From the NCBI GenBank assembly GCA_000165345.1, contig CM000432.1:1-64000 (forward strand): a stretch of DNA of 64,000 nt, read 5' to 3'. Of this stretch, positions 7,738 to 11,383 are shown in pieces. The notes under the pieces are model-generated. The model was not told the origin of the DNA, ran no database searches, and was given only the letters and a program-made list of their open reading frames with translations. The translations under genes and the position numbers were made by a program. Position 1 is the stretch's first letter. Every line of letters starts with the position of its first letter.

Positions 7738-9078
7738 ATGGGAGGAGGCGGATCTAGTCCAGAACCCACTACTACTACTACTACTACTACTACTACTACT
7801 ACCACTACTACTACTACTACTACTACAAGAAAAACCACTCAGTCAACAAGTACTAGTACAGAAACAACAACATCAACTGCCTTAGTAACTACAACTACGA
7901 AGGCACCTCAAAGTGTTACTGGAAGTAGATTTGAAGTGCCAAAAAATAAGGGCGATGATTATGAAAATGGTAGATTATCATTTATATTCCCAATTCATAG
8001 TTTGAAAGAAACTGACTTGACAATTGAATTCTTAAATGAAAATAATATTACAATTACCACATTTAATTTCAAAAGATGCTGTGCAAAAATAATGAACTCA
8101 GTAACAGGATATTTTGATACTTTTGAATATCCTTCAAATTGGGAATCTATTACCTCAATGAACCTTACAATCGCATGGACAACAGCAATGATTTATTTAA
8201 TTATATCGTCAACACTGGTTCCTCTTGCTGGAATAGTTGGTTATGAAAACCCTTCTCCAAATTCAATATTGTTCAAAGATAAGAATAAAAATGAAATTTC
8301 CACTGCTTGGTACTTTAATCCAGATTTTGAAAATATTCTATCCAATTCATGTGTCATCACCTCTCCTGGAAATAAATGCAAGAGCGGTTCAGTTAAATTA
8401 ACTATGGATGAACCATTTACTCCAGAAAAACAATACTTAAGATATGCATTTGCTGCTCCTCCAGAATATTTATATCCTGTAACTATTACGATTTATTCAT
8501 CTGCATCATTCCTGGCATCAATAAAATTTTCTAAGGCTATGGTTGAAATAAGTTCAGAAAAAAAATTAAATACGATTACTATTCCTTCTCCAATAGAAAC
8601 AGGACAATGGATTGCAGGCGATATCTTCCTATTGACTAGCTCTGGATATGATTTTCTAAAAAATAATTCAAATAATTTTCAATGTTTATTTATCACTACC
8701 GCTTCTTGTTTTGCTACTCAATCAACTCAGAAATGGAGAAATTACGACAAAAATTTAGATCTATTACGTTATGCATATATTAAAGGTACCGAATACAGAA
8801 CAAAAAGCAGCGAATATATAATGAATTCATCTACGGATAATAATTTTTCAGAAAATACTTCAGAAAGTGAAATTGTATACCTTTACGTTTCATACAATAA
8901 TGTTATCATTGGAGGTGTTCCTATTCCTTATTCTTCGGAAATTACTGAGTTAAGAATTACAGGTACTAAAAATCTTGTTCCAATTGCATATTGGAGGCTA
9001 TCTCAAGGAATGACTCCCTCAATCACTGTTTCTACCGACATATTAAAAGGTTTAATACCGCAAATCAAGTCGGTATGA
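7738..9078 (+). CDS. subtelomeric family protein A: N-terminal MGGGGS (N-myristoylation-type motif), poly-Thr tract of about 23 T, then a roughly 330-aa conserved C-terminal domain with CC/CKS motifs and one hydrophobic segment
   Basis: ATG at 7738 (the ORF-track start at 7732 is a TTG). The poly-Thr is encoded by an (ACT)n microsatellite. The C-terminal domain aligns with the downstream gene (CCAKIMNSV/CCGKLIDSI, SCVITSPGNKCKSGSVKLT/SCTINALEGRCKSSSVTVT, GQWIAGDIFLL/GEWVSGDIFII, LLRYAYIKG/ILRYAYLKK, YWRL). Confidence 0.6.
   Translation: MGGGGSSPEPTTTTTTTTTTTTTTTTTTTTRKTTQSTSTSTETTTSTALVTTTTKAPQSVTGSRFEVPKNKGDDYENGRLSFIFPIHSLKETDLTIEFLNENNITITTFNFKRCCAKIMNSVTGYFDTFEYPSNWESITSMNLTIAWTTAMIYLIISSTLVPLAGIVGYENPSPNSILFKDKNKNEISTAWYFNPDFENILSNSCVITSPGNKCKSGSVKLTMDEPFTPEKQYLRYAFAAPPEYLYPVTITIYSSASFLASIKFSKAMVEISSEKKLNTITIPSPIETGQWIAGDIFLLTSSGYDFLKNNSNNFQCLFITTASCFATQSTQKWRNYDKNLDLLRYAYIKGTEYRTKSSEYIMNSSTDNNFSENTSESEIVYLYVSYNNVIIGGVPIPYSSEITELRITGTKNLVPIAYWRLSQGMTPSITVSTDILKGLIPQIKSV
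7768..7826 (+). repeat. (ACT)n trinucleotide microsatellite of about 19 units with one ACC interruption, encoding poly-threonine inside CDS 7738..9078
   Basis: actactact... run read directly from the sequence. Confidence 0.9.
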
Positions 9079-9265
9079 ATTTCAATAACTACATTTTCGA
9101 GGCTCTATACTTCAAATTCAATATTTTTTTTTTAAGTTAATTTTTTTTGTATAGTAAATTTATCTGAGTGACTTCGATGTTAATATTTAAATATTTAGAT
9201 AATTAATTTGTTTGTAATAATTATTTCATCATTTTATTTTTAAATTGCACTAAGACACAAAATAT

Positions 9266-9275
9266 TGCATGCAGA
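9266..9275. promoter_or_regulatory. TTGCATGCAG motif about 170 bp upstream of subtelomeric gene B
   Basis: Read directly. Both paralogs therefore carry a GCATGC element at a similar upstream position. Confidence 0.3.
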
Positions 9276-9436
9276 GACTTTGCGTAAATATTTTATTTTA
9301 AATTTCAAATAATATTCTAAAAAAAATCAATATAATTAGGCATTGAAACATATTTTCCATTGTTTTAATTGAACCTAATTTGAAAAAATCCATTCTATTT
9401 TTGGGCAACGTTAATTTCTTTAGTCTGTAAGACAAA

Positions 9437-11383
9437 ATGGGTGCTGAAATAAGTAATTGTCAATTCACAAAATTAGGTGATGCATGCTATTCACCATTTT
9501 CAATGATAAATAACACATTAAGTGAAGCTGCTGCAAATAATTTTGTCTTAAATCTTGAAAAGTCTAAATTCAAATCAGAAAATAATCAATATTGGCTTTC
9601 ATGTATGGTTGGTTCAGTGCCATATAATGGAACTTTAGAATGTGATGTTGAAAATTATGCAACAATCATCTGTGGAAATAGTAAGTTATACAATTTATTT
9701 TAAATTTGTTGTTAAGTTATTTACTCTTATTATTCATTTTAAAGAAAGAATGAGATTTAGACACAGAGAAAATTGTCTTTTTGGATTCCAATTTAGAAAA
9801 AATGAAACTATTGTTTTTGATGTAAGTAAAGAAAATAAAAAACATCACCAAATTCAAAATATAATTCTCTTAAAATGTTTAAATTATAGAATAGAGATCT
9901 TCAGAATCCTTTGTTAGCTTTCCCTCTTCCAACGAATCAATTGGCTGTTGCAACTCAATTTTATGATGAAAATTTCCAAGAGAAATGGGTTTTAAGAAGT
10001 GGCTTTTCAGGTAAGTCTTATGTATATTTCAAAATAGATTTTATCAAAACTATAATTATAGGTTATGTTCCAAATCTCGGACTTGTATTAGATTCAACTA
10101 TTCTTCATCCAGAGAATATTAAAACTCCTTATGATCAACTTAACAAAAATGATGCTAACGATAAAGAAACTGTTGTTTCTGATGCTAACGATAAAGAAAC
10201 TGATGTTTCTGATACTAATGAAGAACAGGCGAGCAATGAATATTTAATTCCGGTAGAGCAGAATAAAATTGAAAATGGAGGGACATTATCATTCAATATC
10301 ACTATTGGCAACTTTAAAAATGACCTTTTTCTTATAATAAGCGATAAAGATAAAAAGCAAATGATCAATCTGGAGTTAAGTAAATGCTGTGGCAAACTTA
10401 TTGACTCAATAAACGAAAATTATGATAGATTTTCATATCCAGAGGAATTAATGGCAAGTAATGCAATAGATTTAAACTTGACGTGGCAATCATCAATATA
10501 CGCCTTGAAAACAAAATCTTCCGATACACCTTTAGCAATAATTCCAATAGAAAATAAAAGCATTCCCTATCAAGCTGTTTTGCTGAACTCTTCAACAAGA
10601 GAAGAATTAAAAACAAACTGGAGTTACACTACAGGAGTCAAAAATCTAAGTTCTGTTTCGTGCACAATCAATGCATTAGAAGGTAGATGCAAAAGTTCAA
10701 GTGTTACAGTCACAAAAATGGTTAATCCAAACATAGAATTTTTGAGATTTGGCTTCCTGTTTTCTAAAGATACTTTGGCTCCTTTCGAAATGACCATTTC
10801 TCAAAACTCTAATAATTTGGCAACTTTACAAATATCATCAAATGTCATTAAAGTTCAATCTAGTGATTCAGAGGAAATAACTCTCAAAAAAGAATTTACT
10901 ACTGGAGAATGGGTTTCCGGAGATATTTTTATTATTTCAGATGATATTCATAATGTAATTGAAGAAGATAGCAGTATTTCATGTAAAAACTATAATGATT
11001 CGTGTTATAGTACACAAAATAGTCAGGACTGGATGGGTATAGTTAGTGAAAAATCTATTCTTAGATATGCGTACTTGAAGAAGCAGGCTGTGGAAAATAA
11101 AGTCAAAACAGATACAAACACTGAAGCTGATTCATCATCGTCTAGCTCAAAAACTCAGTATTACCTTTATATCTCATTTAAAAATTGTATTATTGCTAAA
11201 CTTAATATAAACTCTAATTCTTTTAACAAAGTTTCAGTTTCAAACAGACAAGGCTCAAGCAATTTAGTCTATTGGAGATTGAAAGGTGGTGTCTCCACCT
11301 CTATTAATATTCCCGATAGCTATCTGGATAATCTCAAAACAGATATTCCAAAAGAAATTGAGGCAAACACAAATAAAAACTAG
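9437..11383 (+). CDS. subtelomeric family protein B, 4 exons: join(9437..9680,9745..9821,9890..10010,10062..11383). It starts MGAEIS (N-myristoylation-type motif) and its C-terminal domain is paralogous to gene A.
   Basis: There are three GTAAGT donors, at 9681, 9822 and 10011, with AG acceptors at 9743-9744, 9888-9889 and 10060-10061. The introns are 64, 68 and 51 nt. The phases are consistent (1, 0, 1) and link three ORF-track fragments (9437.., 9642.., 9911..) into one reading frame. A 33-bp tandem duplication (NDANDKET x2) lies at 10147-10212. Confidence 0.6.

Follow-up and report, generated by a model that had tools for sequence, protein, structure and literature searches.

How does a protein that otherwise looks extracellular or glycosylated come to begin with a motif for N-terminal lipidation? 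This question is raised by two adjacent genes near the left end of chromosome 4 of Cryptosporidium parvum. They lie in a stretch of 64,000 nucleotides (GenBank assembly GCA_000165345.1, contig CM000432.1, positions 1 to 64,000), called the window below, and we refer to them as gene A and gene B. An earlier note on this DNA had pointed out that both predicted proteins start with MG-x3-S, an N-myristoylation-type start. Taken as a whole, we are rather confident that the locus is best explained as follows: the two genes encode members of the AGP family, the domain that they share is a predicted galectin-like module, and their N-termini would carry a lipid anchor.

Identity of the Two Genes

All 16 of the published AGP1 tryptic peptides are exact substrings of the spliced product of gene B, two of them in exon 2 and 14 in exon 4. 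The predicted mass of this product is 66.1 kDa, as compared with the published 66 kDa for AGP1; likewise, gene A is predicted to encode a 49.5-kDa protein and cgd4_30 is listed at 50 kDa. Gene A can be named cgd4_30 because of its synteny and the report of Akey et al. (PMC9973360); in C. hominis (LN877950.1, 1.10 Mb, coordinates 1-21,087) the order is gene A, an 88-amino-acid (aa) open reading frame (ORF), gene B and ATG7. It is almost certain, in our view, that gene B is AGP1 (CPATCC_001476) and that gene A is its tandem paralog cgd4_30, with a role in an adhesin complex.

The gene pair and its paralogy are already known (Akey et al. 2023, PMC9973360). As reported in that study, CPATCC_001476 unites cgd4_31 and cgd4_32 with the stretch between them that had been taken as intergenic, and AGP2 is cgd7_4330. 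Monoclonal antibody (MAb) 1A5 immunoprecipitates two proteins that are paralogs, AGP1 and AGP2, and these make up a disulfide-dependent 120-kDa heterodimer, and recognition of the epitope is also disulfide-dependent. The complex is apical in sporozoites and merozoites, is stained on non-permeabilized sporozoites (with cytosolic LDH as a control) and binds the lectins HPA and AIA, which are specific for N-acetylgalactosamine and galactose (GalNAc/Gal). MAb 1A5 lowers attachment to host cells. AGP1 can be deleted; deletion of AGP2 was not obtained, and AGP2 is probably essential. The OrthoMCL group has four C. parvum genes in two adjacent pairs, cgd4_30/AGP1 on chromosome 4 and AGP2/cgd7_4333 on chromosome 7. 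In a single 1A5 immunoprecipitation replicate, two cgd4_30 peptides were recovered; the IgG controls had none. According to the same paper, the AGPs have no predicted functional homology (PMC9973360).

Two later studies are consistent with this description: a CRISPR screen found AGP1 dispensable and AGP2 fitness-conferring (PMC12368253), and cgd4_32 and cgd7_4330 are predicted microneme proteins in a secretome study (PMC12604037). The names need some care. A 2025 review (PMC12688253) gives AGP1 as cgd4_30 and AGP2 as cgd7_4333, which is mislabelled relative to the primary paper (cgd4_32/CPATCC_001476 and cgd7_4330), and the CRISPR-screen paper (PMC12368253) mislabels AGP1 as 'cgd6_32'.

The identity of genes A and B and the layout in two tandem pairs are thus as published (PMC9973360). 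To this we add a predicted galectin-like fold, the MG-x3-S start as a feature of the whole family, and a fifth clade.

Structure of the Two Genes

Gene B has four exons and encodes a 587-aa protein. All three of its introns have the form GTAAGT...AG, with lengths of 51-68 nucleotides (nt) and a GC content of 16-18%, and all three intron positions and phases recur in the orthologs annotated for chipmunk genotype I, C. felis and C. xiaoi. The splice sites, the intron positions of the orthologs and the exon 2 peptides therefore bear out the three-intron, four-exon structure that the earlier note had proposed. The splice that it gave from 9437..9680 to 9911 is wrong in detail; this join leaves out two short exons, and intron 3 (10011-10061) lies within the long ORF beginning at 9911. 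Because of the tryptic peptides in exon 2, any model in which 9437-9680 is not joined to downstream exons is already contradicted.

An internal duplication that had been noticed in gene B is also present, although Tandem Repeats Finder (TRF) gives its period as 30 bp and not 33 bp. It is translated, in that a published peptide (NDANDKETVVSDANDKETDVSDTNEEQ...) spans the duplicated segment of exon 4. The C. hominis AGP1 (P0004) has the 30-bp unit in one copy only. The QMINLELSK peptide in gene B carries an Iowa-type residue. The closest named homolog of gene B is a C. hominis protein with 90% identity.

Gene A is a single exon. Its protein begins with MGGGGS, continues into a Thr-rich tract (42 of the first 66 residues are Ser or Thr) and ends with the shared AGP domain, at about residues 57-446. 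The poly-Thr tract does come from an (ACT)n microsatellite, as had been claimed, and consists of 20 consecutive Thr (Table 1). Dense Ser/Thr tracts of this kind are found in mucin-type glycoproteins; gene B has none. The closest named homolog of gene A is C. hominis GY17_00003229 (97% identity), and the ortholog on C. hominis chromosome 4 is 98% identical.

The Shared Domain and the Extent of the Family

BLASTP aligns genes A and B over 374 aa with 29% identity (E 5e-43). The alignment includes the blocks KRCCAK in gene A and SKCCGK in gene B, SC...CKS, GQWIAGDIF and GEWVSGDIF, respectively, and LRYAY; six conserved Cys in the shared domain are arranged as pairs. These results confirm the view that the genes are divergent tandem paralogs with a common C-terminal domain, Cys pairs and motif blocks. 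A tblastn search found no further copy of either gene within the 64-kb window.

A HMMER profile of the shared domain was compared with 1.84 billion representative proteins. There were 13 matches, all 13 from Cryptosporidium, and by this measure the AGP family is Cryptosporidium-specific. The matches include a C. tyzzeri 'putative Glycoprotein' (E 1.5e-58) and the C. andersoni proteins cand_012370 (1.4e-52) and cand_012380 (3.8e-23), and because of them genes A and B are taken to be homologous to the chromosome 7 pair, that is, to the AGP2 and cgd7_4333 types.

The family members fall into five groups: AGP1; cgd4_30, which includes C. muris CMU_030750; an AGP2-type group with the C. tyzzeri 'putative Glycoprotein', C. 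andersoni cand_012370 and C. muris CMU_009840; a cgd7_4333-type group; and a Ser/Thr-rich group. The fifth group, which is absent from the AGP paper, consists of P0018 (C. felis KAF7459421) and P0024 (C. canis KAJ1614306), both annotated as 'serine/threonine rich low complexity protein'. Its members have an MG[AS]xES..C start, an AGP1-like Cys-rich N-domain, a partial shared domain and long C-terminal repeats. The C. canis gene of P0024 also has a truncated model, P0019, in which the 'MG' start is internal.

Some family members also have a C-terminal motif that follows a Thr-rich stretch. It was seen in P0013, P0015 and P0016, which are C. muris CMU_030750 and AGP2-type proteins (SSWISFLEGLF, SWMDSFLSWF, SWLQELLSWL), and neither gene A nor gene B has it. 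The AGP2-type C-terminus (SWMDSFLSWF) was considered as a glycosylphosphatidylinositol (GPI) signal and, judged by eye, was rejected as too short and too polar.

A Predicted Galectin-Like Fold

An AlphaFold2 (AF2) model of gene A was made from an 18-sequence family alignment. The mean predicted local distance difference test (pLDDT) is 81.2 and the predicted template modeling score (pTM) is 0.78; 239 residues have a pLDDT of at least 90, and residues 57-446 are mostly above 85. The model is almost wholly β-strand, with a helical insertion at about residues 301-363 and a disordered N-terminal Thr tract. Approximately 22 strands precede the helices and more follow them, and this strand count suggests two sandwich domains. 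We consider it quite probable, from the model, that the shared region of ~370 aa is a galectin-like β-sandwich module with a helical insertion, probably made of two sandwiches and braced by Cys. The same Cys-braced, galectin-like sandwich would be the module through which AGP1 and AGP2 pair.

The predicted module resembles the galectin-like domains of the Toxoplasma proteins M2AP (PDB 8j64) and MIC1 (PDB 2k2s). A weaker AF2 model of the AGP1 ortholog from the chipmunk genotype (11 sequences, pLDDT 60.6, N-domain unmodeled) has the same structural matches in the same ranking. A few observations count against a galectin-like assignment. The match comes from a predicted structure, with 7-11% sequence identity in the structural alignments (7-12% in the comparison with M2AP, MIC1 and galectins); a Pfam scan of gene A, gene B and exon 1 found no galectin match at E up to 1 and only sub-threshold, low-complexity hits to Mucin and Dicty_REP; and a sequence-profile search of the PDB found nothing at E up to 1. 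The AGP module is also about three times larger than the galectin-like domains of M2AP and MIC1 or than galectins, it differs from them in its helical insertion and conserved Cys pairs, and no canonical galectin sugar-binding residues were identified in it. Thus, the resemblance is one of predicted fold only: the AGPs are not members of the galectin family, and neither the family's sequence signature nor its canonical sugar-binding signature was found in them.

The MG-x3-S Start

The PROSITE pattern PS00008 for N-myristoylation, G-{EDRKHPFYW}-x(2)-[STAGCN]-{P}, was anchored at the N-terminus. Both MGGGGSS of gene A and MGAEISN of gene B pass, and so the claim that these are N-myristoylation-type starts holds. 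The motif is not confined to the pair. Outside the cgd7_4333 clade, MG-x3-S is present in 17 of 20 family N-termini, 16 of them pass PS00008, and there is no signal peptide.

The pattern is most regular in the AGP1 orthologs, where MG[AS]x[ILFV]S(N)C occurs in all eight sequences from seven species: MGAEISNC (C. parvum and C. hominis), MGANLSNC, MGADFSNC, MGSNFSNC, MGANISNC, MGSEISC and MGSEVSC. Five of the seven species with a cgd4_30 ortholog have either MGGGGS (C. parvum, C. hominis, C. felis and C. xiaoi) or MGSHHS (C. muris), and these include the distant C. xiaoi and C. muris. The other two begin with MAGDES (chipmunk genotype I) and MKSNEG (SRR18693150); such Gly2-less orthologs are natural variants that may be informative on how important the motif is. 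All three of the AGP2-type starts fit MG-x3-S (MGGDNSPPEWC, MGSHHSNIAQWC and MGSSNSS), and the fifth clade has MGATESNIC and MGSVESSVC. In contrast, all five of the cgd7_4333-type proteins have a hydrophobic segment instead of MG, for example MYKFYFSLISFFTLSLIF (KD12 of 2.15-2.59 in the three that were computed). Across the family, the MG start and a hydrophobic N-terminus look like alternatives.

The motif has been kept in three or four paralog lineages that share 20-29% identity, and the residues that follow it are unrelated, being either poly-Thr or a Cys-rich domain. A Cys is present at position 7-12 in the AGP1- and AGP2-type N-termini. The AGP1 proteins of C. parvum and C. hominis do not differ over their first 35 residues, and the remainder of exon 1 holds all 13 of the amino-acid differences in that exon. 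As judged from sequence comparison, the N-myristoylation-type starts are under constraint.

Is MG the True N-Terminus?

The motif could be lipidated only at a true N-terminus, and in the mechanism that we propose, MG-x3-S, with its Cys where present, would be just that, with no signal peptide ahead of it. N-terminal hydropathy is low in both proteins, with no hydrophobic h-region in the first 40 residues of gene A or gene B. Neither AGP1 nor cgd4_30 has a transmembrane segment or a GPI signal, and neither has the helix of at least 20 residues that marks a type III transmembrane protein; with a 19-residue window, the maximum hydropathy of AGP1 is 0.91 and that of gene A is 1.96, at residues 149-168. 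The gene A segment was considered as a transmembrane segment or signal anchor and was rejected, as it aligns to a stretch of AGP1 that is not hydrophobic and the AF2 model places β-strands there (E151-156 and E161-167, with block mean pLDDT of 86-91). The classical secreted mucin-type proteins (gp40/15, GP900 and CpMuc) have an N-terminal signal peptide, which was found in neither gene A nor gene B.

One might suppose that the annotated starts are wrong and that a classical signal peptide is encoded by a short 5' exon missing from the annotation, which would make the MG internal. Gene models have been corrected here before, when cgd4_31 and cgd4_32 were merged, and in C. parvum gene A the AG at 7730-7731, directly before TTGAAAATG, is a conceivable splice acceptor. 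However, an in-frame stop lies 9 nt upstream of both ATGs (TAA at AGP1), and in every species checked there is one within 6-60 nt of the start. The intergenic regions scanned are 203-1,580 bp long (for AGP1 in four species and for C. tyzzeri AGP2, 203-393 bp), and no plausible signal-peptide exon was found in them in C. parvum, in C. hominis or before C. tyzzeri AGP2; ahead of genes A and B the scan gave neither a signal-peptide ORF nor a donor pair. Upstream of AGP1 there is no ORF of at least 12 aa beginning with ATG, either in the 358 bp of C. parvum or in the 354 bp of C. hominis; the 203 bp upstream of C. tyzzeri AGP2 have no donor-like site; and the MKSNEG ortholog has no AG in the stretch from its upstream stop to the ATG. 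In addition, independent annotations in seven species share the same MG start. On the upstream stops and the intergenic scan, a hidden signal-peptide exon was rejected, and we think it very improbable.

Are the N-Termini Lipidated?

The earlier note had called it unexpected that a lipidation motif should stand on proteins that otherwise look extracellular. This oddity is genuine, since AGP1 and AGP2 are surface-exposed, disulfide-linked and lectin-reactive (PMC9973360). The paradox is conserved across the genus and has apparently gone unremarked in the literature: the terms signal peptide, myristoylation, palmitoylation, transmembrane and intron each occur 0 times in the paper on the AGPs (PMC9973360), and in the searchable literature we found neither a Cryptosporidium myristoylome nor any mention of AGP myristoylation.

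We propose that the AGP N-terminus would most likely be N-myristoylated, and possibly S-palmitoylated as well. The lipid would then supply the membrane anchor that is otherwise absent from a protein with no transmembrane segment or GPI signal, and entry into the secretory or surface compartment would be unconventional, as it is for Toxoplasma MIC7. Under the same proposal, cgd4_30 would be a constrained paralog with a mucin-like Thr stalk, probably in analogous complexes.

There are precedents for parts of this proposal. TgMIC7 is an N-myristoylated microneme protein with its N-terminus facing the microneme lumen, and it is thought to be inserted as a type III protein through its transmembrane helix (PMC7373427). 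Like the AGPs, it is an apicomplexan microneme or surface protein of the invasion stage that starts with MG, has Cys-rich domains of an extracellular type and lacks a cleaved signal peptide. Unlike them, MIC7 has a 22-residue transmembrane helix and EGF domains, whereas AGP1 has no such helix, the AGP domain is predicted to be galectin-like and there is no sequence relationship. The second precedent comes from the same organism. Cp23 (cgd4_3620) begins with MGCSSS, has no signal peptide and is described as a sporozoite 'surface' antigen; both myristate and palmitate were found on it by mass spectrometry (PMC5549699), and therefore the C. parvum N-myristoyltransferase (CpNMT) uses N-termini of this kind, with MG followed by Cys. 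Cp23 differs from the AGPs in that it is small, acidic and of low complexity, without Cys-paired folded domains, a documented disulfide or O-GalNAc, and it is presumed to face the cytosol. Leishmania HASPB also has no signal peptide, and its N-terminal myristate and palmitate are required for its display on the outer surface. It is unlike the AGPs in being hydrophilic and repeat-rich, with no disulfide-bonded domains or O-GalNAc, and it has no homology to them.

Several observations weigh against lipidation. Gly2 has been lost in two cgd4_30 orthologs, MAGDES (L002:8109-9443, chipmunk genotype I) and MKSNEG (L001, Logan SRR18693150), in which the rest of the protein is 76-84% identical, and therefore the motif is dispensable in that lineage. 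The C. tyzzeri AGP2 (MGGDNSP) has a Pro at position 7, which PS00008 forbids. Myristoylation is cytosolic, and the usual place for forming interchain disulfides and adding mucin-type O-GalNAc is the lumen of the endoplasmic reticulum (ER) and Golgi. AGP1 also has no transmembrane segment for type III insertion in the manner of MIC7, so that if the protein is both lipidated and luminal, its route is unexplained. The published list has no peptide from exon 1 of AGP1, which is uninformative either way.

The loss of Gly2 and the Pro at position 7 also speak for a different explanation, namely that MG-x3-S is conserved but is not a substrate of N-myristoyltransferase (NMT) in vivo, or that the lipid is irrelevant, and that the proteins enter the ER by an unrecognized internal or non-classical signal and are retained at the surface by protein contacts, such as a transmembrane partner. 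The disulfide and the HPA and AIA reactivity of the complex are documented luminal modifications, and in one C. parvum secretome most proteins have no predicted signal peptide (PMC12604037). What this explanation does not account for is the persistence of the motif across paralog lineages whose following residues have wholly diverged. Retention of Ser6 is not explained by initiation context alone, and the motif and a hydrophobic N-terminus are mutually exclusive across the family. We regard this alternative as a serious possibility that we would nevertheless not favor.

Another possibility is that cgd4_30, and perhaps the whole family, are acylated peripheral proteins on the cytosolic face of the membrane, as Cp23 is presumed to be, with a poly-Thr tract that is unmodified or carries nucleocytosolic glycans; the surface exposure would then reflect a part of the complex or leaky cells. 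The lack of a signal peptide and transmembrane segment would fit, as would the acylation of Cp23, which indicates that C. parvum 'surface antigens' can be acylated without a signal peptide, and the finding of cgd4_30 as only two peptides in one 1A5 immunoprecipitation replicate. It is difficult to reconcile with the six paired Cys conserved in the shared domain, with a heterodimer and an epitope that depend on disulfides, with the staining of non-permeabilized sporozoites under the LDH control, with the microneme prediction for both AGP1 and AGP2 (PMC12604037) and with the block of attachment by MAb 1A5. We consider this explanation improbable.

Returning to the lipidation proposal, whether AGP1 is actually N-myristoylated is a close call, and we lean slightly against it; for cgd4_30, actual N-myristoylation is possible but doubtful. 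The most far-reaching version is that AGP1, AGP2, cgd4_30 and the fifth clade are N-myristoylated, partly dually acylated galectin-fold adhesins that reach the microneme lumen or surface without a signal peptide or transmembrane segment, the lipid being both the targeting device and the sole anchor. We would call this version unlikely.

Evolution of the Pair

The earlier note had described a lineage-specific subtelomeric family undergoing diversification. It is true that the family is found only in Cryptosporidium and that 7-11 kb separate the pair from the chromosome end, and no class of C. parvum genes is more polymorphic than the subtelomeric one (PMC9317183). One could therefore imagine that the genes are actively diversifying as contingency or variant antigens, by microsatellite slippage, domain gain and duplication, and the rapid change of AGP1 and the absence of its 30-bp duplication from C. 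hominis would agree with this. Several results speak against it, the evolutionary account is for the most part incorrect in detail, and we give it very little credence. The order cgd4_30, AGP1, ATG7 is kept in five species (C. parvum, C. hominis, chipmunk genotype I, C. felis and C. xiaoi), with one copy of each gene, and the window has no other copy. In C. tyzzeri, the chromosome 7 pair is adjacent (L007), on a 1.28-Mb contig that is apparently chromosome 7, with ~0.3 Mb between the pair and the contig end; therefore, the sister pair is not subtelomeric. Subtelomeric variant multigene families such as SKSR and MEDLE have copies at several ends and change in copy number, and these features were not found for the AGP genes.

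The two genes evolve at different rates, as measured by dN/dS (Nei-Gojobori, C. parvum vs. C. hominis). The value for cgd4_30 is 0.10, with 98% amino-acid identity, and its housekeeping neighbor ATG7 has 0.11. AGP1 has 0.63 over the whole gene, with 90% amino-acid identity; this divides into 0.31 for the shared domain, 1.24 for the linker and 3.7 for exon 1, where 15 non-synonymous changes and 1 synonymous change are too few sites for significance. Positive selection on exon 1 was considered, and the 15:1 ratio is suggestive but not significant (about p 0.1, a binomial estimate). These comparisons indicate that gene A is strongly constrained and that, of the pair, only AGP1 is fast-evolving.

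The length of the Thr tract had been thought likely to be polymorphic, which the comparison does not support. The tract has exactly 20 Thr codons in both C. parvum and C. hominis, with different interruptions, and in other species it is encoded by mixed ACT, ACC, ACA and ACG codons. The equal length and mixed codons therefore suggest that tract length is maintained at the protein level, rather than being subject to free slippage.

The Cys-rich N-domain of AGP1 (~150 aa) is 39-70% identical across the AGP1 orthologs, with 38 invariant columns, and conservation of both the domain and the three intron positions reaches back as far as the C. xiaoi/C. bovis clade. The three-intron N-terminal extension of gene B is real, then, but it is ancient, and a recent gain was rejected. 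When the N-domain was compared with those of the AGP2-type and Ser/Thr-rich proteins, hhalign gave an E of 1.6e-4 and a probability of 50% over 109 columns, which is suggestive of a common origin, though not proof. Loss of the N-domain in cgd4_30, or its replacement by the Thr tract, would be at least as likely as its gain in AGP1.

The Chromosome End

The coordinates of all features are listed in Table 1. With a GC content of ~28%, the window makes up the left end of chromosome 4 in C. parvum.

The 160-aa ORF, the first gene after the telomere, agrees with what has been described for cgd4_10 (MVP6): this protein of the microvillus is exported and carries both an export motif and a palmitoylation site (PMC7618952). 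The stretch that is most divergent between C. parvum and C. hominis contains the 95-aa ORF. A strong purine skew at 54-58 kb is due to the Lys/Glu-rich repeats of the 1833-aa ORF.

Table 1. Features of the window with their coordinates, strand and main characters.
Feature	Coordinates	Strand	Remarks
GC-rich segment (cccagcttggcatgcctggcggggcggatctcgcgggatcccccc)	1-45		Non-telomeric; SphI and BamHI-like sites; resembles a vector or adapter remnant ahead of the telomere array
Telomere repeat array, CCTAAA/TTTAGG	53..770	.	~110 degenerate copies, 81% matches; marks the left end of chromosome 4
160-aa ORF	1452-1934	-	Signal peptide, RRIRRRL motif, CCCCC run, Pro/Ser-rich tail
335-aa ORF	4410-5417	+	Signal peptide; probably cgd4_20
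Stretch most divergent from C. hominis	6000-7199		86-87% nucleotide identity vs. ~97% elsewhere
95-aa ORF	6573-6860	-	Signal peptide
Gene A, cgd4_30 (UniProt A3FQM6)	7738..9078	+	Single ORF, from ATG at 7738 to the stop at 9078; 446 aa
(ACT)11-ACC-(ACT)7-ACA microsatellite	7768..7827	+	20 consecutive Thr in gene A; TRF period 3, 19.7 copies
AGP1 exon 1	9437..9680	+	MGAEISNC... and beginning of the Cys-rich N-domain; phase 1 at its end, with a GTAAGT donor
AGP1 exon 2 (KRMRFRHRENCLFGFQFRKNETIVFD)	9745..9821	+	Splice sites; published peptides HRENCLFGFQFR and ENCLFGFQFR map here; intron position kept in three other species
AGP1 exon 3 (NRDLQNPLLAFPLPTNQ...WVLRSGFS-)	9890..10010	+	Splice sites; ortholog alignment
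AGP1 exon 4	10062..11383	+	Acidic linker and shared AGP domain to the stop; 14 published AGP1 peptides, including QMINLELSK
30-bp tandem duplication in AGP1 linker	10150..10218	+	TRF 2.3 copies, 94% matches; encodes DANDKETVVS-DANDKETDVS (unit DANDKETxVS)
1833-aa ORF	52198-57699	+	Rich in Lys/Glu repeats
33-bp repeat in 1833-aa ORF	54147-54989		25 copies
321-345-bp repeats in 1833-aa ORF	55250-56195		

What the Lipidation Motif Would Mean

A major cause of childhood diarrhea has AGP1 and AGP2 as attachment factors; both are vaccine candidates, and AGP2 appears to be essential. The predicted galectin-like fold would be the first structural handle on the family, and the escorter and assembly domains of Toxoplasma microneme complexes may be a parallel case. 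Retention of the AGP complex at the surface is otherwise unexplained, as there is no transmembrane segment or GPI signal; if MG-x3-S, with its Cys, is lipidated, this anchoring would be explained. The same finding would tie the family to the NMT inhibitors that are in development against Cryptosporidium, and it would imply that recombinant, non-acylated vaccine antigens differ from the native protein, a concern that has also been raised for Cp23.

If the AGPs are indeed acylated adhesins, the cgd7_4333 clade, in which MG is swapped for a hydrophobic signal sequence, would be a natural control. The TgMIC7 precedent would then extend to a whole family, and to proteins incapable of type III insertion, and Cryptosporidium would have a route across the membrane that has yet to be described.

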